Shown: positions 1-7,941 of the stretch, piece by piece | How positions within the stretch are numbered: the first letter of the stretch is position 1 | How the letters are laid out: every line of letters begins with the position of its first letter | Source of the DNA: a virus | Taxonomy: Duplodnaviria; Heunggongvirae; Uroviricota; Caudoviricetes | DNA length: 8,059 bases | Virus record (IMG/VR): IMGVR_UViG_2778261541_000003 | Direction: 5' to 3' (one strand) | Notes under the pieces: generated by a model | What the model was told of the DNA's origin: nothing | The model's database searches: none | What the model saw: the letters and a program-made list of their open reading frames with translations, nothing else | Made by a program: the position numbers and the translations under genes

Positions 1-50
1 GGTCATCGGGCATTATCTGAACATAAAACACTATCAGTAAGTTGGAGTCA

Positions 51-587
51 CTACCAATAATGTAATATTATTGACTTACGTTGTTTTCTTGCTTCGTAGA
101 ATAAACGCTCTTGCGGCGATAATTTGTGAAAACTGCCGGATGCACAATATATGTTTTTTAACTTTTCGCTGGTTGCTTTTATTGTATCTTCTGAGATGTA
201 TTTTAGGTATTTATCCGTATAGATGTTGCTACTATAAGAAATTAATGTTTTGCTGTTGTTGTGATGTGTTGTATTTTTATCGTTGAAGTCTGTATTTTTA
301 TTTACTGTCATTAGGTTTTTAATGATTACATGTAATGCAATAGTCTCCCCATCATCAATTCCATATTTGATGTCATAGTCAGTATATTTATTTGTTATAC
401 CGCTTCCTGATAGCGGCACTATGTACTCTGAGAAAAATGAGTTTGCCGCGTGACCATCAAGAGCAATAGCAGTTTTTTTGTGGTAAAAATAAAACAATAT
501 TGAGAGAGTCAAAATAATAGCGACGCCTAATGCAACCTTTAATATAGATATGGTTTTCAAAATATCGCTCCTTGTTGTAACATACAT
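51..587 (-). CDS. Hypothetical signal-anchored (single N-terminal TM helix) protein, Asn/Lys/Tyr-rich, AT-rich gene
   Basis: ORF track 51..608 (-). Hydrophobic stretch ILKVALGVAIILTLSILFYFY followed by HKK. The track start at 608 is TTG with no SD. In-frame ATG at 587..585 chosen here; an alternative TTG at 560 is preceded by a strong AAGGAG (rc of 568-573) at 7 nt spacing and would give N-terminus MKTISILKV. No family recognised. Confidence 0.55.
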   Translation of the reverse strand: MYVTTRSDILKTISILKVALGVAIILTLSILFYFYHKKTAIALDGHAANSFFSEYIVPLSGSGITNKYTDYDIKYGIDDGETIALHVIIKNLMTVNKNTDFNDKNTTHHNNSKTLISYSSNIYTDKYLKYISEDTIKATSEKLKNIYCASGSFHKLSPQERLFYEARKQRKSIILHYW

Positions 588-650: not shown

Positions 651-1082
651 CTATTCAGGTATTTCAATTCCAAAACCATCTGCATCCCATGAGTTTTCAC
701 AGATGATGTAACCTAGTTCATTGAGCTTATTAAATGTTTTTTCAAAGATGATCTGGTAATCATTATCTGCAAGTGATTCCAGTTCAAGGTCATTAAGGTT
801 TATATAAAAACTTGTATGTCCAAGTGTTATTTTCTTATTGATTTCATTAAAAGTTCTTTTGAAAATAATATTTGATATTTCATGCCGTGCATTGTTTGCA
901 ATAATTTTTGCTTCATAAGCAGAAATTACGTCATCTTCATGAATATCTTTCAGAAAGCTGGTGTCAAGACGTTGTACTATTTCAGCGTTCATTGAGCGCT
1001 TATTGGCTTTTGCAGAAATTTCTATTTTTTCTTTTACTTCAACGGGAAGTCTGATCCTTAGTTGTGGATCTTCTCTGCTCAT
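651..1082 (-). CDS. mnt: Mnt-like ribbon-helix-helix (Arc/MetJ superfamily) repressor with an extra ~95-aa C-terminal domain of unknown function
   Basis: ORF track 651..1112 starts at TTG; in-frame ATG at 1082..1080 preceded by GGTGA. N-terminus MSREDPQLRIRLPVEVKEKIEISAKANKRSMNAEIVQRLD aligns closely with P22 Mnt as I recall it (MARDDPHFNFRMPMEVREKLKFRAEANGRSMNSELLQIV). Divergent from an arc-ant pair as in P22 immI. Confidence 0.8.
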   Translation of the reverse strand: MSREDPQLRIRLPVEVKEKIEISAKANKRSMNAEIVQRLDTSFLKDIHEDDVISAYEAKIIANNARHEISNIIFKRTFNEINKKITLGHTSFYINLNDLELESLADNDYQIIFEKTFNKLNELGYIICENSWDADGFGIEIPE

Positions 1083-1119
1083 GTTCTTCACCAAATATTG
1101 AGTTACTTGCAATGATTGA

Positions 1120-1188
1120 AGTATGCCTCACCGTGTGCTTGACATCAATGACGCACGGTGTGACAATTGTTTTGCCCCACGGTGGGGC
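1120..1188. promoter_or_regulatory. Divergent promoter/operator region between the mnt-like and arc-like genes
   Basis: Plus strand: -35 TTGACA 1139-1144, 17-bp spacer, -10 GACAAT 1162-1167. Minus strand: -35 TTGATG (rc of 1143-1148), 17-bp spacer, -10 CATACT (rc of 1120-1125). 15-bp perfect palindrome GCCCCACGGTGGGGC at 1174-1188 sits at the predicted rightward start site and shares the CCACGGTGG core with the P22 Mnt operator as I recall it. Inverted 7-mers CACCGTG (1129-1135) and CACGGTG (1154-1160) flank the overlapping -35 elements. Confidence 0.5.
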
Positions 1189-1202
1189 TAAGGAGATATG
1201 AA

Positions 1203-1370
1203 ATGCAAAAAGCAAAAGAGATGTGTCAACGACGAGTTCGTTTTCCGGACGATGTGAAGTTAGCTATTGAAAGAAATGGCGAAAAAGAATGCCGAAAGTT
1301 CAATACAGAGATTATCTATCAGCTGAGGAAAGTGTATGGACTCACTGGTGAGAAGAATAGCGTGGCATAA
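1203..1370 (+). CDS. arc: Arc-like ribbon-helix-helix transcriptional repressor (55 aa)
   Basis: ORF track 1167..1370 starts at TTG; in-frame ATG at 1203 has AAGGAG (1190-1195) 7 nt upstream. RRVRFPDDVKLAIERNGEKECRKFNTEIIYQLRK resembles the P22 Arc RHH fold (FNLRWPREV...ENGRSVNSEIYQRV). Size and position (immediately upstream of ant) match arc. Confidence 0.75.
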   Translation: MQKAKEMCQRRVRFPDDVKLAIERNGEKECRKFNTEIIYQLRKVYGLTGEKNSVA

Positions 1371-1442
1371 AACAGCGAAGCCCAACGGTGGCCAGACCGT
1401 CAGGGCTTCAGTATCGTAAAACTACGTATAGGAATTAACGAC
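1367..1442 (-). ncRNA. Candidate sar-like antisense RNA covering the ant ribosome-binding site
   Basis: Minus-strand sigma70-like promoter (-35 TTGATA, 17-bp spacer, -10 TATACT) predicts a start near 1441-1443. The transcript would be antisense to the ant SD (AGGAA 1430-1434) and end at a minus-strand hairpin GAAGCCC...GGGCTTC (1377-1409) followed by GCUGUUUUAU. Predicted length ~75 nt, comparable to P22 sar (~68 nt, from memory). Confidence 0.5.
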
Positions 1443-2387
1443 ATGACGAGTATAGCAACAGCGGTATCTACTATCAACGTGCCATTCCACGGCGCAGAAC
1501 TTTATGTTGTCAATCACAACGGAGAACCGTACACCCCAATGAAACCTATCGTTGAAGGCATGGGTATGGATTGGGCTTCACAGTTTACGAAAATGAAGCA
1601 GCGGTTTAAAACCTGCATTGTGAAAATCACAATGCAGCTTCCTGGGGATGAACAGCGCCGTGAGATTATTTGTTTGGCACTTCGCAAACTTGCTGGCTGG
1701 TTGCAAACCATCAGCCCTAACAAAGTCCGCCCTGAAATCCGCGACAAGGTAATCCAGTATCAGGAAGAGTGTGACGATGTTCTCTACGAGTACTGGACTA
1801 AAGGCCATGTGGTTAACCCACGCAAAGCTAAAAAGGCGTTGCCGGGTAAAATAACCACTGAACAGCAGGAAGCCATTAAACAACTCGTCATGAGTCGCGG
1901 TCAGTCTCTGCCAAAAGAAAAACAGGCTAAGGCGATGATCACCATGTGGTCGTCACTGAAATCTCATTTTGGCTGTTCGTACAAAGAAATTGATGAAGAT
2001 CAATTCGCCGAAGCGTTGTCTCTTGTTGCTCGGGTTCCGCTTGAAGGGGAGCATCTCCCTGCTGGATCTGCATCAGAGAATGATGAAGTGGCAGTCAAGA
2101 TGTTAGATGCGCTTCGTGAGGCAATTAAAACACAGACAAAATGTTATGGTTATCCGCTGAAGCCCGGCTACCGCAGTCTGATTCATTCGCCGTCTGGTGT
2201 TCTCGGCCTGACGGAGAACTCACTGCTGATGAATCTGCTTAACCAGTTACAGGACGACGGGCACGATGTATCGGGCGCGGCGGCGGAGCTGACCACCATG
2301 TTCTGCTACATCGTCGGTGTGAGCAAATGCCTGCGTGATATCCAGACCCACGCGGAGTACATCAACGACAAGGCTGGGTTCTTCTGA
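1443..2387 (+). CDS. ant: Phage antirepressor (Ant; P22-antirepressor-like N-terminal domain plus conserved C-terminal domain)
   Basis: 314-aa ORF; AGGAA 8 nt upstream of ATG. Follows arc as in immI. N-terminal region (...LAGWLQTISPNKVRPEIRDKVIQYQEECDDVLYEYWTKG) resembles the P22 antirepressor N-domain family as I recall it. C-terminal ~80 aa are shared with two other genes in the window. Confidence 0.88.
   Translation: MTSIATAVSTINVPFHGAELYVVNHNGEPYTPMKPIVEGMGMDWASQFTKMKQRFKTCIVKITMQLPGDEQRREIICLALRKLAGWLQTISPNKVRPEIRDKVIQYQEECDDVLYEYWTKGHVVNPRKAKKALPGKITTEQQEAIKQLVMSRGQSLPKEKQAKAMITMWSSLKSHFGCSYKEIDEDQFAEALSLVARVPLEGEHLPAGSASENDEVAVKMLDALREAIKTQTKCYGYPLKPGYRSLIHSPSGVLGLTENSLLMNLLNQLQDDGHDVSGAAAELTTMFCYIVGVSKCLRDIQTHAEYINDKAGFF
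1449..1477 (-). promoter_or_regulatory. Candidate sigma70 promoter for the sar-like antisense RNA
   Basis: -35 TTGATA = rc of 1472-1477; 17-bp spacer; -10 TATACT = rc of 1449-1454. Lies inside the first codons of ant. Confidence 0.5.
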
Positions 2388-2422: not shown

Positions 2423-2533
2423 CTGTACAGATTGCAGACTGTGGGTGAATAGCGTACTATTACCTCAAGGGTAAGAAAGCATTTTTAATCTTCCCTTCAA
2501 AACGCGTCCTGTAGCCAAACATGGGAGGACGAA

Positions 2534-3166
2534 ATGAGAACAAATACAACAAGAAAAGCGATGCCATACATTATCCCAGAAGCAGATTTCGATAGAAAAC
2601 TGAACATGTCTGAGAAGAACACTAGTCACACCGAAAGCTACTTAGCGAAAGGTGTGGTTGATTTCGTTCTTCCGGGATTCACAACACCTTATGGTTATCG
2701 CCTTGTAAAATCTTGTAATGGCGATCATTACAGAATGATTACTACCAGCGATACTCCAGAAACGGTGTATGCGGTTAAGTTAATCTTTCGGGAAGATATC
2801 GTCGAAGCCAAAAGAACATGTACGCAGATCATGGTATGGCGTACGCCTAATGTTATTCATGACCGTGCTGTTCATGGTTTGCCTCAGATTTTTTTTCAGT
2901 TCTTCCTAGAGCAATATGCGATCGTTGTATCTGATGAGCAACAAACAATCGATGGGAGGAGATTCTGGGAAAGAATGATTTCTTGGGCTATAAACACCCC
3001 GGGATATAATGTATACGTTTCAGATGGCTCTGAAGAAGATAGACCTCTTAGCTTCATGACATCATGGGATGATTTCTATAGCCAGTGGGCTGATTTCTGT
3101 TGGGGCAGTGATAAAGATGTGCATACCCACAGACTACTGGTTATAAGCAAAGATAAACTGCATTAA
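2534..3166 (+). CDS. Hypothetical protein (210 aa), cassette gene, no recognisable family
   Basis: ATG at 2534 with GGGAGGA SD 5 nt upstream; stop TAA 3164-3166; visibly lower GC than the flanking ant genes. Convergent with the 3187-3630 gene, sharing a bidirectional terminator. Confidence 0.7.
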   Translation: MRTNTTRKAMPYIIPEADFDRKLNMSEKNTSHTESYLAKGVVDFVLPGFTTPYGYRLVKSCNGDHYRMITTSDTPETVYAVKLIFREDIVEAKRTCTQIMVWRTPNVIHDRAVHGLPQIFFQFFLEQYAIVVSDEQQTIDGRRFWERMISWAINTPGYNVYVSDGSEEDRPLSFMTSWDDFYSQWADFCWGSDKDVHTHRLLVISKDKLH

Positions 3167-3169
3167 TAG

Positions 3170-3188
3170 AAGCCCGCGGCGCGGGCTT
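3170..3188. terminator. Bidirectional hairpin terminator between convergent cassette genes
   Basis: AAGCCCGC-ggc-GCGGGCTT perfect 8-bp GC-rich stem at 3170-3188, followed by TTCTTCTTCTTC on the plus strand; overlaps the stop codon of the minus-strand gene. Confidence 0.55.
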
Positions 3189-3630
3189 ATTCTTCTTCTT
3201 CATCATTAAAAAGCGGATTGTTGTTTCCATCTGATGAAAGGAAAGGTATGTGTTCTCTTGAAAATCCAACAATGACAATTTCATTATCATTTTTTGCATA
3301 ATGAATGCATTCATTAGAATGCATTCCGCCAGGGTTGAAATTTAAGTTAATGGTATAATTCTTAAATGTGTTTGGATACCATGTTGGCCCACAATGATAA
3401 TGCCAATAATTCTCTTGCTCATAATTGTCTGAGCCGGGAATTTTATCATGGTTATCATCAACCCACGAGGGCTTGTTTTTTCCAACAAGCGCCCTTCCAT
3501 TGGCAACATCCTCTAAAAACCTTTGTATGATTTTTATTTCATCATCAGTAAGGAAAGGTCCGTCTACAGCGAAAGGGGTGTTGCTTTCCCCATGTAGAAA
3601 ACTATTAGATATTCTAATGTTAAACTTCAA
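3187..3630 (-). CDS. Hypothetical protein (147 aa) with acidic C-terminal tail, no recognisable family; possible toxin or effector partner of the upstream small ORF
   Basis: ORF track 3187..3630. Start is TTG (rc of 3628-3630) with AGGAG SD 6 nt upstream; no in-frame ATG until residue ~103. Ends ...NDEEEE. Contains YWHYHCGPTWYP. Confidence 0.65.
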   Translation of the reverse strand: MKFNIRISNSFLHGESNTPFAVDGPFLTDDEIKIIQRFLEDVANGRALVGKNKPSWVDDNHDKIPGSDNYEQENYWHYHCGPTWYPNTFKNYTINLNFNPGGMHSNECIHYAKNDNEIVIVGFSREHIPFLSSDGNNNPLFNDEEEE

Positions 3631-3818: not shown

Positions 3819-3874
3819 ATCGCGCCTCCTTTACCTTTAAGGTAATATTACGCGAATCTACATCACATCGCCAA
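3819..3874 (-). promoter_or_regulatory. Candidate sigma70 promoter with palindromic operator for the 3651-3818 / 3187-3630 operon
   Basis: Minus strand: -35 TTGGCG (rc of 3869-3874), 18-bp spacer, -10 TAATAT (rc of 3845-3850), immediately followed by perfect 15-bp palindrome TTACCTTTAAGGTAA (3831-3845) over the predicted start site, then AGGAGG. Confidence 0.5.
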
Positions 3875-3879
3875 TGATT

Positions 3880-3903
3880 ATTTTAAAGGCACATCCCTGT
3901 GCC
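3880..3903 (-). terminator. Intrinsic terminator downstream of the second antirepressor (inside the repeat)
   Basis: Hairpin at 3888-3903 (GGCACA-loop-TGTGCC) followed on the minus strand by TTTAAAATAAT. Confidence 0.5.
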
Positions 3904-4141
3904 GCCGCCCGTCAGAAGAATCCTGCTTTGTCGCTGATGTACTCCGCGTGCGTCTGGATATCACGCAGGCATTTGCTCACACCGACGATGTAGCAGAACA
4001 TGGTGGTCAGCTCCGCCGCCGCGCCCGATACATCGTGCCCGTCGTCCTGTAACTGGTTAAGCAGATTCATCAGCAGTGAGTTCTCCGTCAGGCCGAGAAC
4101 ACCAGACGGCGAGTGAATCAGGCTGCGGTAGCCGGGCTTCA
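3882..4141. repeat. Inverted repeat copy B (partner of 2157-2418)
   Basis: Reverse complement matches copy A; covers the last ~77 codons of the second antirepressor plus its terminator hairpin. Confidence 0.9.
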
Positions 4142-4568
4142 GTGGGGCGCTGTATTCTTTTTTGTCTTCCAGCTTGATCGCCTCCATAATGGCGGGCATG
4201 AAGCCTGACAAGACCTTCTCCACTTTTGTTTCTTGTTGTCTTAAACGTTTCTCGCATTCAATGAAGTAGCGTCGCACCTGGCGACCTTTTTCGTTACGCT
4301 CGACCATCGCCAGCTCTTTGGCTGTATCAAGGGTGAGGTGGTACTCTTTGCGGTTGTGGCCGCCTCTACCAGATGTTTGCTTTCCCAAATTGGAAAGCAA
4401 AATATAGTCTTGATTTTCAATGAATTCGTATTCTGATATGCGATTTGTAATCCATGCTGCAAACACCTTTTTAACACCTAAAAAAGCGTGCAGATCGCGG
4501 GCATTACAAAGTAGGGCTGTTTCGTTAGATATAGTGCCGTTGAATACGGGGATGAGTTGAGCGTTCAT
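3912..4568 (-). CDS. Phage antirepressor, second copy: different N-terminal domain (Bro-N/ORF6N/Rha-like, tentative) fused to the same C-terminal domain as Ant
   Basis: 218-aa ORF; ATG at 4568..4566 with GGAGA SD (rc of 4576-4580). N-terminal part (...[33 protein letters not shown]...[32 protein letters not shown]) resembles phage antirepressor N-terminal families. C-terminal 77 aa are ~97% identical to Ant (1443-2387). Confidence 0.88.
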
Positions 4569-4596: not shown

Positions 4597-4804
4597 CACC
4601 ACCGCTGAGACCAATCAGATGGTGGTGAACTGAACGGAGTTGGTCTTACCGGCCTAAGTGGTACCGGCGTCCTTTCGGACCCCCATTCAGCCCACCATAA
4701 TTCTGGCATGACTGTGCTATACGCATAAAAAAACCACGTCTGGCGTGGTATGCGCCACTTAGTAATCCGGGAGACCAATCCCGGCACTGGATTTTGCCAG
4801 TGCC
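4597..4804 (-). other. Hairpin-rich untranslated leader upstream of the second antirepressor
   Basis: H1 at 4597-4627: CACCACC-g-CTGA-[gaccaa]-TCAG-at-GGTGGTG. H4 at 4767-4784: CCGGGA-[gaccaa]-TCCCGG, same hexaloop. H5 at 4783-4804: GGCACTGG-attttg-CCAGTGCC. No convincing ORF in this ~400 bp (track ORF 4596..4928 rejected). Confidence 0.45.
4726..4749 (-). terminator. Candidate intrinsic terminator or attenuator within the leader (minus strand)
   Basis: Minus-strand RNA ACCACG-CCAGA-CGUGGU followed by UUUUUUU (plus-strand A-run 4727-4733). Sits ~160 nt upstream of the second antirepressor start codon. Confidence 0.45.
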
Positions 4805-4839
4805 CGATTACTATGGCACAAGAGGAGTGCAATGTAAAT

Positions 4840-4948
4840 TTACCGCAAAGGTAATGATAAACGCGAAGAAATATTAAAATCAACCGTATTTGGTTGATTG
4901 CGTTTAACGCTTGATCACCTGAAAGCAAGATATTACCTTTAAGGTAAT
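4840..4948. promoter_or_regulatory. Two palindromic TTACC-N5-GGTAA operator-like sites
   Basis: Site 1 TTACC-gcaaa-GGTAA at 4840-4854. Site 2 is a perfect 17-bp palindrome ATTACCTTTAAGGTAAT at 4932-4948. Centres are ~94 bp apart. Site 2 lies ~20 bp upstream of the start of ORF 4968-5696 and at the distal end of the minus-strand leader. Confidence 0.5.
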
Positions 4949-4967: not shown

Positions 4968-5696
4968 ATGGAAGTTTTCTGGATAGTTGTTGGTGTGGTT
5001 GCGGTGATTATTTACGTTATCAACCAGAACAAGACTAAGATCTCTGATCGTACGGTCGTTAATCATAACAAAACGATAAAGACCGAAGATGGGGAGATAA
5101 CGATTAATCGTACACAGGTGATAGAACACACCTCTACTCAGTTTCAAAAAACTGGAGGTAATGCGCCTAATATTTCCGCACCTCCTGCTTATGATAGTGC
5201 GGTAATCCAGACATATTATAAACAGCAGGAGTTAGCAAAAGAGAGGCAACTGATTCAGCCAAAGCCGTTTACAGCTGAGCTTCCACCTGGAGTGTCAACG
5301 CGTCCGGCATATCATGGAAGATTCCCTGGTGATGACATATCGTCTCAGTCATCTAAAAAAGCACCTCAGGCAGTATCAGAGCCAGCAAGAATACCTTCTG
5401 TATCGCCGCCAAAAGAAGAATCAGCTAACAGAGTTTCAAGTGGTAGCAAGCAGTGCTTGCGATGCAGAATAAACCTACCATATGAAAAATTCAGGAAATC
5501 GTCAAAAAATCCAGATGGATTGACTAAGTGGTGTGCAAGGTGTCTCGATGGCCCAAAGAATACACGCCATATGAAGTGGTGCCCAATTTGTAATGTCCGC
5601 AGAAAACGAACAAGCTTTTACCCTAATAATCAAAATGCGGATGGCTTAATGGCATGGTGCAAAACGTGCTGGGACGAGCACAAAGCGAAACGATAG
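4968..5696 (+). CDS. Membrane-anchored protein with Pro/Ser-rich linker and C-terminal tandem CxxC-N20-WCxxC (zinc-ribbon-like) motifs; function unknown
   Basis: 242-aa ORF; GAGG 7 nt upstream of ATG. N-terminal TM helix MEVFWIVVGVVAVIIYVI followed by NQNKTK (positive-inside rule suggests a cytoplasmic C-domain). Two Cys motifs: CLRCRINLPYEKFRKSSKNPDGLTKWCARC and CPICNVRRKRTSFYPNNQNADGLMAWCKTC. Terminator follows. Confidence 0.75.
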   Translation: MEVFWIVVGVVAVIIYVINQNKTKISDRTVVNHNKTIKTEDGEITINRTQVIEHTSTQFQKTGGNAPNISAPPAYDSAVIQTYYKQQELAKERQLIQPKPFTAELPPGVSTRPAYHGRFPGDDISSQSSKKAPQAVSEPARIPSVSPPKEESANRVSSGSKQCLRCRINLPYEKFRKSSKNPDGLTKWCARCLDGPKNTRHMKWCPICNVRRKRTSFYPNNQNADGLMAWCKTCWDEHKAKR

Positions 5697-5720
5697 GCCG
5701 CTCTTGCGGCCTTTAAATTT
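5696..5720 (+). terminator. Intrinsic terminator after the Cys-rich membrane protein gene
   Basis: GGCCGC-TCTT-GCGGCC (5696-5711) followed by TTTAAATTT; stem overlaps the stop codon TAG 5694-5696. Confidence 0.6.
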
Positions 5721-5976
5721 ACCGGGTTTGTTTTCGTAATTGTTCGGCACAATAGTCGAGATGTGTTTGCAGATCCCGCATAGACATCTGTGAGCTGGTG
5801 ACGTAGTTAATCAGTGCAGTCAGTTCGGCAAGTGGGCCATCGACATTAAATCCATCCTTATCGAGATCCCGGAGTAATTTCATCAAGTGCGATCCCTCCA
5901 CCAGTGACCTGACGCCTCCCGGCGTGTGAATCCTTTCGGTAAATCCGTCTTCCAGTGGATAGTGATACTGCTGCAT
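5719..5976 (-). CDS. Small stand-alone antirepressor C-terminal-domain protein (85 aa), candidate SOS-inducible mini-antirepressor
   Basis: ORF track 5719..5994 starts at TTG; in-frame ATG at 5976..5974 with GGAGA SD 7 nt upstream. PLEDGFTERIHTPGGVRSLVEGSHLMKLLRDLDKDGFNVDGPLAELTALINYVTSSQMSMRDLQTHLDY aligns over its length with the shared C-terminal domain of the two larger antirepressors ([69 protein letters not shown]). LexA box 20 bp upstream. Confidence 0.8.
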   Translation of the reverse strand: MQQYHYPLEDGFTERIHTPGGVRSLVEGSHLMKLLRDLDKDGFNVDGPLAELTALINYVTSSQMSMRDLQTHLDYCAEQLRKQTR

Positions 5977-5995
5977 CTTATCTTCTCCATGCAAT

Positions 5996-6015
5996 AACTG
6001 TATAAATATACAGTA
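5996..6015. promoter_or_regulatory. LexA (SOS) box
   Basis: AACTGTATAAATATACAGTA at 5996-6015 is CTGT-N8-ACAG with an AT-rich spacer, 18/20 match to the E. coli consensus TACTGTATATATATACAGTA. A TTGATA -35-like hexamer abuts it on the minus-strand upstream side. It lies 20 nt upstream of the 5976 start codon. Confidence 0.8.
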
Positions 6016-6051
6016 TCAAATAATTTGTTTGCTATCCAGCACGTTTTGCGA

Positions 6052-6118
6052 ATCACCTGAAAGGTAATATCTGTTCGTATTTATGGGTTATCTATCCATA
6101 TATGGTTTTTAAGGTAAT
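6052..6118 (+). promoter_or_regulatory. Repeated motifs upstream of the tail-fibre gene (ATCACCTGAAAG plus two AAGGTAAT half-sites)
   Basis: ATCACCTGAAAG-GTAATAT at 6052-6069 (TCACC-tgaaa-GGTAA, imperfect palindrome) and TTTTTAAGGTAATAG at 6106-6120. Same motif family as 3831-3845, 4840-4854 and 4932-4948. Confidence 0.4.
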
Positions 6119-6171: not shown

Positions 6172-7941
6172 ATGACGGTCTCAACCGAAGTTGACCACAA
6201 CGAATACACAGGTAACGGTGTTACAACGGCATTCCCTTATACCTTCAGGATTTTCCAGAAATCTGATTTAGTAGTGCAGGTTGTTGACCTGAACGAGAAC
6301 ATCACAGAGCTGATTCTTGATACTGATTACATAGTCACTGGTGCGGGAGGGTATAACGGCGGCAATGTAATTCTGTCGAAGGCGTTGGCTAACGGTTATC
6401 AGATTTCTATATCAAGAGAGCTACCGGTTACGCAGGATACCGATCTGCGCAACCAGGGTAAGTTCTTCGCTGAGGTGCATGAAGACGCATTCGATAAACT
6501 GACGATGCTGATCCAGCAGGTTCGCAGTTGGTTTGCCTTGGCGCTGCGCAAGCCATCAACCATCGCTAACTGGTACGACGCGCTGGGGAATTACATTCGC
6601 AACCTGCGCGACCCACGAGACCCGCAGGATGCTGCCACTAAAAATTATGTAGACACGATTAGTAACAACAACTATCTGCACACGTTAAGGGTTCCAGAGT
6701 CATTTACGCGGCAACTCCCTCCTGCTGCAGAACGTGCAAATATGATCCATGCATATGATTATGCAGGTGAGTCCATTATGGTCTTGCCTGAGAGCGGTAG
6801 TGCAGCAGATGTTCTGTTATTGCTGGCGCAACCTGACGGGCTTAAGAGGATTGGCACAAAAGTTAATTACGGTATACCGGTTGGATCTACTTTAACCGAT
6901 GGCGTCACTTTTTCTTTTGATAAGGATAAAGGTTGGCTGAGAATTGGTGGTGCCGATCTCCTACCACTTGACGATGAAAAGAACTTCTGGAGAGGCTTGC
7001 CTACACCGAGAAATTCATGGTGTAACCCGGCTCTTATCGGTGATTACTCAGTATCTTTTAACAGAAACGGTGCGTCATTCGCGGTATACGCCACAACTTT
7101 CGGGCATGACTGCGTTACGTACGGCGCGGCATCTATTGCCGGTGGTGCTGGTTCTGCCACTGGGGACCCAGATCATATTACCTCACCAAATGCTGAGGGG
7201 TACTGCTCTTTTGCATTTGGGAAAAATGTCATTGCTCTTGGAGCAAAATCTGCCGCATTCTGTGAAGAAACGGAAGCGCTTTCAAGGGCGGCTTTTGCAA
7301 CAGGTTATTATACACAAGCCAGACCGGGATACACTACAGACCCCGGCGGGGTTGCAAGTGATGGCATTGGTGCGGCGGCCATTGGATATCGAACTCGCGC
7401 GGCAGGAGATGGCTCTTTTGCTGTAGGTAAGAATATTCAGGCTTATGGTGGTTCGATTGCGATCGGGTGCGGCACTGATGAAGATAACCCAGCAGTCAAT
7501 CCACATAAAGACTCAGTGATGCTGTTTGCAAAATCGCTTATTCCAGGTATATCCGTTGTACCTGGTGGCGGTGGGCCGGAGGAACCATCGCGTGTAGGGG
7601 GGCACACAAAATACCCTAAAGAAATAGTGGATGTAGTACTGGAGGGAGGGGGCCGCGCAGCCATCAGAATACCAGGGATAGGAACTGGTACGATCTTGCT
7701 GCAAGGGACAGATAACGACGGCAATGCACTTTCTATCGCGTCGCTTGAATGGACAAGCGGAAACGGAGGTAGTGCTGTTGGTTCGTTGAAAATAAACATG
7801 AACAACGACGCACCATGCATTGAATTTCTGGAAGATGGCAAGGTGGTTTTGAAGAACGTAAAAACGTTTGAGGAGATAAACGGCGCCCCCGCGGGCACCA
7901 TTTATAAGGATGCTTCAAACTTCCTTAAAATTGTTGTTTAA
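6172..7941 (+). CDS. Tail fibre / tail spike protein: T7 gp17-like N-terminal adaptor domain with Gly/Ala-rich repeat-containing C-terminal region
   Basis: 589-aa ORF; GGAGA 7 nt upstream of ATG. N-terminus (EYTGNGVTTAFPYTFRIFQKSDLVVQVVD...YIRNLRDPRDPQDAATKNYVD) resembles the conserved N-terminal domain of T7 gp17-type tail fibres. C-terminal half has repeats such as CSFAFGKNVIALGAKSAAF and GSFAVGKNIQAYGGSIAIG that resemble YadA-head/Hep_Hag-type beta-roll repeats. Confidence 0.88.
   Translation: MTVSTEVDHNEYTGNGVTTAFPYTFRIFQKSDLVVQVVDLNENITELILDTDYIVTGAGGYNGGNVILSKALANGYQISISRELPVTQDTDLRNQGKFFAEVHEDAFDKLTMLIQQVRSWFALALRKPSTIANWYDALGNYIRNLRDPRDPQDAATKNYVDTISNNNYLHTLRVPESFTRQLPPAAERANMIHAYDYAGESIMVLPESGSAADVLLLLAQPDGLKRIGTKVNYGIPVGSTLTDGVTFSFDKDKGWLRIGGADLLPLDDEKNFWRGLPTPRNSWCNPALIGDYSVSFNRNGASFAVYATTFGHDCVTYGAASIAGGAGSATGDPDHITSPNAEGYCSFAFGKNVIALGAKSAAFCEETEALSRAAFATGYYTQARPGYTTDPGGVASDGIGAAAIGYRTRAAGDGSFAVGKNIQAYGGSIAIGCGTDEDNPAVNPHKDSVMLFAKSLIPGISVVPGGGGPEEPSRVGGHTKYPKEIVDVVLEGGGRAAIRIPGIGTGTILLQGTDNDGNALSIASLEWTSGNGGSAVGSLKINMNNDAPCIEFLEDGKVVLKNVKTFEEINGAPAGTIYKDASNFLKIVV

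Follow-up and report, generated by a model that had tools for sequence, protein, structure and literature searches.

The closest described relative of the locus analysed here is the Ant/Rep switch of phage SPC32H, whose host is Salmonella. Its antirepressor Ant is reportedly repressed by LexA and acts on the repressor Rep, which it inactivates by direct binding. PMC7380047 (citing Kim & Ryu 2013) outlines the general route: with SOS induction and self-cleavage of LexA, an antirepressor is made, and the repressor is then inhibited by protein-protein interaction. On the structural side, PMC9638917 describes an Ant tetramer that binds two Rep dimers and breaks up the Rep tetramer. PDB entry 5D50 has the SPC32H 'Anti-repressor protein' as chain E and a 'Repressor' as chain A, the latter according to a note in the epsilon15 record.

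Other temperate phages offer functional parallels. Tum of coliphage 186 is a small LexA-repressed antirepressor that couples the SOS response to the induction of a prophage with a non-cleavable repressor; it comes from a P2-like myovirus and targets an unrelated CI protein. [quoted passage not shown] 2011, PMC3121763). Their complexes appear to be A2B2, whereas that of SPC32H consists of an Ant tetramer with two Rep dimers. A different kind of control is found in P22 immI (mnt-arc-ant-sar) and in P1 immI (c4-icd-ant) or Gifsy-1 isrK-anrP. These serve as models for two larger antirepressor genes described below, and the small gene that is our main subject carries neither the P22 immI nor the P1/Gifsy-1 type of control.

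We analysed an 8,059-nt stretch of viral DNA (IMG/VR record IMGVR_UViG_2778261541_000003), referred to as the window, with features listed in Table 1. Judged by its likeness to SPC32H, the 85-aa gene is with high confidence the ant gene of an epsilon15/phiV10-like podovirus, predicted to be repressed by LexA, induced by the SOS response and able to inactivate Rep, leading to lytic derepression. The original prediction, which read the gene as a LexA-controlled small antirepressor coupling induction to SOS, is supported by a strong predicted box and by orthology to SPC32H Ant. It is not novel, the SPC32H Ant/Rep system being already published (Kim & Ryu 2013, J Virol 87:11775; Kim et al. 2016, PNAS 113:E2480). 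Since a LexA-repressed Ant acting on Rep has been both published and crystallised for SPC32H, the locus makes no mechanistic addition. Such prophages occur in EHEC and O157-associated strains (TL-2011b, phiV10), and it is important to know what actually sets them off under SOS if their response to DNA-damaging antibiotics is to be predicted.

Table 1. Features of the window discussed in the text (positions count from the first nucleotide of the window)
Feature	Position	Strand	Details
sar antisense RNA	1374-1441	-	Rfam RF00262; upstream of the 314-aa gene
Ant-like C-domain of the 314-aa antirepressor (1443-2387)	2145-2387	+	phrog_450 on residues 232-312
Ant-like C-domain of the 218-aa antirepressor (3912-4568)	3912-4160	-	homology to small Ant
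C4 antisense RNA	4618-4702	-	RF01695; upstream of the 218-aa gene, same strand
isrK RNA	4727-4803	-	RF01394; upstream of the 218-aa gene, same strand
GC-rich hairpin	5695-5712		between the convergent 242-aa gene and ant; 7-bp stem with 6 GC pairs, T-rich tail on + strand
ant, stand-alone 85-aa antirepressor, SPC32H Ant orthologue	5719-5976	-	ATG at 5976, stop at 5719-5721
Shine-Dalgarno GGAG	5985-5988	-	8 nt before the ant ATG; invariant in 10 of 10 orthologues
Predicted LexA (SOS) box	5996-6015	-	TACTGTATATTTATACAGTT on minus strand, AACTGTATAAATATACAGTA on + strand; CTGT-N8-ACAG core 5998-6013
Putative ant promoter	6010-6038	-	-35 TGGATA 6033-6038, 17-nt spacer, -10 TACTGT 6010-6015
Rep-operator-like palindrome	6052-6068		ATTACCTTTCAGGTGAT, ATTACC-N5-GGTAAT type; between ant and tailspike, 36 nt upstream of the LexA box

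The small ant gene and its genomic setting

On its sequence, the window is assigned to a temperate podovirus prophage of the epsilon15/phiV10 type, genus Uetakevirus, to which SPC32H also belongs; the window phage is one of E. coli. The DNA between positions 5600 and 6200 is 95-98% identical to Escherichia phages TL-2011b, phiV10, HEMP4, ZX5 and others, and approximately 77% identical to relatives from Salmonella and Enterobacter. In SPC32H, epsilon15, phiV10, Tyrion, BUCT554 and several Klebsiella phages, the small ant gene comes immediately after the injection-protein genes, and it is transcribed divergently from the tailspike gene. The window ant has the same epsilon15-like location, divergent from the tailspike gene, with extra cassettes inserted distal to it. 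These cassettes, about 5.5 kb between the injection-protein genes and ant, carry two additional Ant-domain genes, whereas SPC32H has neither cassettes nor such genes at this place. No full-length copy of the window was found in the complete E. coli genomes searched (best coverage 78%), and no tRNA genes were found in the window. The hairpin that separates ant from the convergent 242-aa gene is probably a bidirectional terminator, ending both genes, and the epsilon15 record labels its equivalent a rho-independent terminator.

The 85-aa protein aligns over its full length with the product of SPC32H ant (SPC32H_020, 86 aa) at 86.7% identity (tblastn), the two differing by 11 substitutions. A phmmer search matched residues 2-84 to PDB 5D50 chain E with an E-value of 1.4e-46, and phrog_450 matched the protein with an E-value of 7e-48. 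No Pfam or NCBIfam model matches it, and the Pfam scan detected no P22_AR_N, AntA or Bro-N domain in it. An in-frame TTG at 5994, which would extend the product to 91 aa, was rejected as the start codon: it has no ribosome-binding site, and all orthologues begin at the ATG.

In a search of 1.8 billion representative proteins, 45 families related to small Ant were recovered, either as stand-alone proteins of 82-95 aa or as C-terminal fusions of 130-319 aa. The SPC32H-type Ant is the correct family for the 85-aa protein, which displays the testable features by which this family is defined at the sequence level. PHROGs lists phrog_450 as 'unknown function', and nearly all public copies of small Ant from E. 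coli, Klebsiella and Enterobacter are labelled 'hypothetical protein'; together with the missing Pfam and NCBIfam models, this is probably why the gene looked new. The practical value of the assignment lies in annotation of these copies. E. coli phage ZX5, with a small Ant that shares 98.8% identity with that of the window, illustrates the point: the 2022 study of this Uetakevirus tested only a large Bro-N protein, ORF4, to which it gave the antirepressor role, and left the small gene unconsidered (PMC9782041). In the same work, mitomycin C treatment of a ZX5 lysogen raised the titer 100-fold, from 1e7 to 1e9 PFU/mL.

We also weighed whether the protein could belong to the families of 186 Tum or of Gifsy GfoA/GftA. 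The regulatory logic of these systems is the same as that of small Ant, and epsilon15 ant is preceded by a box that matches the LexA box of the 186 promoter p95, TACTGTATGTTTATACAGTA, letter for letter. Kinship with either family is nevertheless extremely improbable. A single pairwise BLASTP between the 85-aa protein and Tum (146 aa) gave a non-significant E-value of 0.056, and the C-terminal DinI domain of Tum is missing from the window protein; given the lack of detectable sequence similarity, the resemblance is functional only. The Gifsy antirepressors are set apart by their description: they belong to lambdoid siphoviruses and are encoded by the second gene of a LexA-controlled dinI-ant-irsA operon, close to the replication genes (PMC3121763). 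The window, by comparison, contains neither dinI nor irsA, and its small ant stands alone between the terminator hairpin and the tailspike gene. The coliphage 186 and Gifsy comparators named in the original prediction are apt as functional analogues, but they are probably not relatives of the window protein.

A predicted LexA site over the likely ant promoter

The sequence at 5996-6015 differs from the 20-nt LexA consensus TACTGTATATATATACAGTA by two mismatches and is the only match in the window at three mismatches or fewer; among 200 dinucleotide shuffles, not one contained such a site. The bare CTGT-N8-ACAG pattern, allowing one mismatch, occurs four times in the window against 2.75 expected; since this pattern is not rare, the significance is carried by the full 20-mer. 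A set of 20 E. coli SOS boxes was turned into a weight matrix that gives approximate scores. With this matrix, the box reached 24.8 bits, as compared to 13.7-26.7 bits (a median of 20.9) for the training sites, 7.1 bits for the next best site in the window and 20.1 bits for the best of 200 shuffles. Its heterology index is about 1.5. No LexA box was found in the window scan ahead of the two larger antirepressor genes. The proposal of a near-consensus box upstream of the ATG of the 85-aa gene therefore holds, with one correction to the spacing, which is 19 nt rather than 20. Taken as a whole, the sequence supports 5996-6015 as a strong predicted LexA site over the likely ant promoter.

A strict sigma-70 scan found no promoter for ant. 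The TGGATA-17-TACTGT placement given in Table 1 follows the analogy with 186 p95, whose annotated -10 hexamer is also TACTGT and sits at the left end of the LexA box, just as the proposed -10 hexamer does in the window. By this analogy, the LexA box likely overlaps both the -10 hexamer and the transcription start site. Another candidate promoter, TTGATA-17-TATTGC, was set aside, as transcription from it would begin inside or after the conserved GGAG.

The intergenic region between ant and the tailspike gene was aligned for ten phages of E. coli, Salmonella, Enterobacter and Klebsiella. Both LexA half-sites (TGT...ATACAGT) and the ant ATG are invariant or nearly so, while the 8-nt spacer and the flanks of the box vary; retention of the half-sites with a variable spacer across genera is what is expected of a LexA site. 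The window box aligns with the SPC32H box, TACTGTATGTTTATACAGTG, and the two are equally far from their ATG. The Klebsiella phages have ATGT instead of CTGT as their left half-site, and their boxes still score approximately 17 bits. A CTGGA core within the putative ant promoter block is kept in all ten phages, as CTGGATAG (TGCTGGATAG) in seven phages of E. coli, Salmonella and Enterobacter and as CTGGAAAA (TTCTGGAAAA) in three Klebsiella phages. The 17-bp palindrome ATTACC-N5-GGTAAT is conserved in 10 of 10 orthologous regions, including that of SPC32H, where it likewise lies upstream of the LexA box.

The presence of this second conserved palindrome (6052-6068 in the window) in an AT-rich region raises the question of whether the box is bound by a phage-encoded regulator rather than by host LexA, or whether it is a chance AT-rich palindrome without function. 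We regard either possibility as very remote. The shuffled sequences produced no match, the score lies above the median of genuine SOS boxes, and the combination of conserved CTGT/ACAG half-sites with a variable spacer across genera is a LexA signature. The box also bears little resemblance to ATTACC-N5-GGTAAT, the operator motif of the phage itself.

More distant relatives were collected in three single-protein scans of viral contigs, using queries 36-44% identical to the window protein. Four of the six distant stand-alone loci have a LexA-like box of 15.6-17 bits located 20-40 nt upstream of the ATG, and a fifth (L016) has a look-alike with a 7-nt spacer and a poor score. All five of these loci have an ATTACC-N5-GGTAAT-like palindrome further upstream. 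No LexA-like box was found at L020, and L021 showed a weak partial match.

Rep as the likely target of small Ant

LexA binding, SOS induction and Rep disassembly in the window phage are inferred from the work on SPC32H. In the lysogen, host LexA bound at 5996-6015 would keep ant silent, this site overlapping what are likely the -10 hexamer and the start of transcription. Upon DNA damage, RecA-stimulated self-cleavage of LexA would allow ant to be transcribed, and small Ant, a tetramer in SPC32H, would bind the main repressor Rep and break up its DNA-bound tetramer, so that the lytic operons become derepressed. The Rep of TL-2011b contains HTH domains only and no S24 peptidase, and the lack of this self-cleavage domain explains the need for an antirepressor.

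Since rep lies outside the 8-kb window, Rep is proposed as the target on the basis of relatives and of operator-like sites. The ATTACC-N5-GGTAAT motif clusters around rep in SPC32H, epsilon15 and TL-2011b, and the epsilon15 record annotates the equivalent of 6052-6068 as a 'repressor' binding site. Rep-operator-like palindromes are present in every intergenic region of the window (2459-2475, 3830-3846, 4839-4855, 4932-4948 and 6052-6068), and a further weak one is located at 50-66, giving five to six sites against 0.4 expected. The cognate Rep of the window subgroup, represented by that of TL-2011b, can be aligned with SPC32H Rep along the entire length at 42% identity (E-value 5e-53).

The two partners have diverged to different degrees. 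When the phiV10 group is compared with SPC32H, identity is 87% for Ant and 42% for Rep; for Tyrion and SPC32H the values are 85% and 45%, respectively. The operator motif is shared by the phiV10 group and SPC32H although Rep has diverged. With Rep at 42% and Ant at 87% identity, small Ant may plausibly bind the 194-aa Rep of the phiV10 group. One possibility is that Ant binds to a surface that Rep has conserved; the other is that alleles of ant and rep, being far apart on a mosaic genome, reassort. Reassortment would require a broadly specific Ant, as in the case of the Gifsy antirepressors.

The same disparity, in suggesting broad Ant specificity, bears on a different reading of the locus, according to which LexA control is real while small Ant acts mainly in trans on the repressors of co-resident prophages, or duplicates what the two larger antirepressors do, and does not itself set off the induction of its own prophage. 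This reading would fit the action of Gifsy antirepressors on heteroimmune repressors (PMC3121763) and the presence of two more Ant-domain proteins encoded within 4 kb. We nonetheless consider it unlikely. The phage groups that have small Ant also hold a Rep homologue (35 Ant and 36 Rep records), and the operator motif has been kept despite the divergence of Rep. SPC32H ant is reported to induce its own prophage (PMC7380047), and any crosstalk would come on top of self-induction, not in its place. SOS-dependent inactivation of the phage's own Rep stays the preferred reading of the small ant gene.

Two larger antirepressors with Ant-like C-terminal domains

The original prediction held that the 85-aa protein is homologous over its whole length to a C-terminal domain shared by two larger antirepressors of the window. 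The homology is borne out over residues 2-79 of 85. Small Ant is 43% identical over 76 aa to residues 235-310 of the 314-aa protein (E-value 1e-16) and 41% identical over 78 aa to residues 137-214 of the 218-aa protein (E-value 6e-17). The N-termini of the large proteins differ in type: that of the 314-aa protein is a P22_AR_N domain (E-value 1e-44), and that of the 218-aa protein is an AntA/AntB domain (AntA, E-value 4e-26). Both proteins carry the SPC32H-Ant-like C-terminus in place of a P22_AR_C domain. It had also been suggested that the C-domain by itself targets the repressor, and the crystal structure of the orthologous SPC32H Ant (87% identical) with Rep, PDB 5D50, argues that the window protein would do so as well.

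Each of the two larger genes is embedded in a recognisable regulatory layout, as far as its sequence surroundings tell. Upstream of the 314-aa gene, a divergent pair encodes a 153-aa protein with a Pfam Arc match and a 67-aa protein whose only Arc-like matches are weak ones to PHROGs; together with the sar RNA, this corresponds to the P22 immI layout. The surroundings of the 218-aa gene, with its C4 and isrK RNAs, correspond to the layout of P1 immI and Gifsy-1 isrK-anrP. One Ant-like domain thus appears three times in the window under three predicted controls: LexA, an Arc pair with sar RNA, and C4 with isrK RNAs. We know of no description of such an arrangement of Ant domains under three controls. 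It is a recombination of known parts. Three Ant-domain genes with three kinds of control make a tractable system, which could reveal through which of their domains the large antirepressors contact the repressor.

As a tentative proposal, for which the odds are somewhat unfavorable, the SPC32H-type Ant fold may be a portable Rep-disabling module that has been wired to three independent inputs: LexA/SOS, a P22 immI-type input and a P1/Gifsy-type input. If true, the lysis-lysogeny switch of this phage works like an OR gate with three inputs. Alternatively, the two fused copies, with Ant domains 41-43% identical to small Ant, may be aimed at the Reps of competing heteroimmune Uetakevirus prophages. 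If the C-terminal domain disables Rep as proposed, it would be the repressor-binding part of many proteins annotated as 'anti-repressor Ant', and the P22_AR_N, AntA and Bro-N domains would do something else.

The C-domains of the two large proteins are far closer to each other than to small Ant, their last 77 residues differing at one position. In the DNA, they correspond to an inverted repeat of 264 bp with 97% identity between 2154-2417 and 3882-4145. This repeat brackets two genes of unknown function.

Antirepressor modules and a possible invertible segment

We found that positions 651–2387 form a complete P22 immI-like module, in which an Arc-family (Mnt-like) gene lies divergent to an Arc-like gene and an antirepressor gene with a P22_AR_N domain. 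The sar antisense RNA of this module (Rfam RF00262; 45.2 bits, gathering score 43) is located exactly between the arc-like stop codon on one side and the ATG of the P22_AR_N antirepressor gene on the other. The leader located 5' of the AntA-type antirepressor gene holds both a C4 antisense RNA (RF01695, 61 bits) and an isrK Hfq-binding RNA (RF01394, 68 bits), an RNA control of the P1 immI/Gifsy-1 isrK-anrP type.

The two large antirepressor genes are convergent, and their C-domain coding ends, together with ~30 bp downstream, constitute the arms of a 264-bp inverted repeat (97% identity) enclosing a segment of 1.46 kb that contains two genes of unknown function. This repeat suggests recent gene conversion, and inversion of the segment by homologous recombination could occur. 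In phiV10, the match of PhiV10p23, a Bro-N "anti-immunity protein", to the Ant-like domain is confined to the first ~31 residues of that domain, and an ORF of 30 codons comes next; in this phage the C-domain therefore looks frameshifted or truncated.

Coordinates and strands of the features discussed (window positions unless another phage is named)
Feature	Position	Strand	Remark
Arc-family (Mnt-like) gene	651–1112	-	153 aa
Arc-like gene	1167–1370	+	67 aa
sar RNA	1374–1441	-	
P22_AR_N antirepressor gene	1443–2387	+	
Inverted repeat arms	2154–2417, 3882–4145		
Gene between repeat arms	2534–3166	+	phrog_1349
Gene between repeat arms	3187–3630	-	phrog_5954
AntA-type antirepressor gene	3912–4568	-	
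C4 RNA	4618–4702	-	
isrK RNA	4727–4803	-	
242-aa protein gene	4968–5696	+	phrog_6762, unknown function
Tailspike or tail-fibre gene	6172–7941	+	
ATTACC-N5-GGTAAT sites	2459–2475, 3830–3846, 4839–4855, 4932–4948, 6052–6068		
ATTACC-N5-GGTAAT site, weak	50–66		
PhiV10p23 region	2071–2750 (phiV10, L009)		
LexA box, p95 promoter	9045–9064 (coliphage 186, L014)		

LexA boxes, repressor sites and Ant conservation

The p95 (tum) promoter of coliphage 186 and the region upstream of gp19 (ant) in epsilon15 (L003) carry one and the same LexA box, TACTGTATGTTTATACAGTA, whereas the antirepressor proteins, Tum and Ant, are unrelated in sequence.

The 17-bp palindrome ATTACC-N5-GGTAAT was present in every intergenic region of the window, with six sites against 0.4 expected (≤2 mismatches). 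In the epsilon15 record, this motif carries the annotation of a "repressor" binding site, and clusters of it flank rep on both sides in SPC32H, epsilon15 and TL-2011b. Given this placement, annotation and clustering, control by the prophage repressor probably extends to the ant/tailspike region as well as to the inserted cassettes.

Among relatives, Rep, the presumed target, is far less conserved than Ant. Identity between the phiV10 group and SPC32H reaches 87% for Ant but only 42% for Rep, and the corresponding values for Tyrion are 85% and 45%; despite the Rep divergence, the phiV10 group and SPC32H have a common operator motif. The gap in conservation points either to a Rep surface that has stayed conserved or to an Ant of broad specificity encoded on a mosaic genome.

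Genes flanking ant

The ant gene is convergent with that of the 242-aa protein, and a probable terminator hairpin is common to both. The protein has a hydrophobic N-terminus and, at its C-terminal end, two Cys-rich repeats weakly resembling Stc1, endonuclease VII and Lar-like zinc fingers. The 5' end of the tailspike or tail-fibre gene matches epsilon15-group phages as far as the query reached (position 6200); the rest of the gene gave only a weak YadA-head-like repeat match. Its receptor-binding part has probably been swapped among relatives. In the best-matching E. coli genome, the tailspike gene is truncated.
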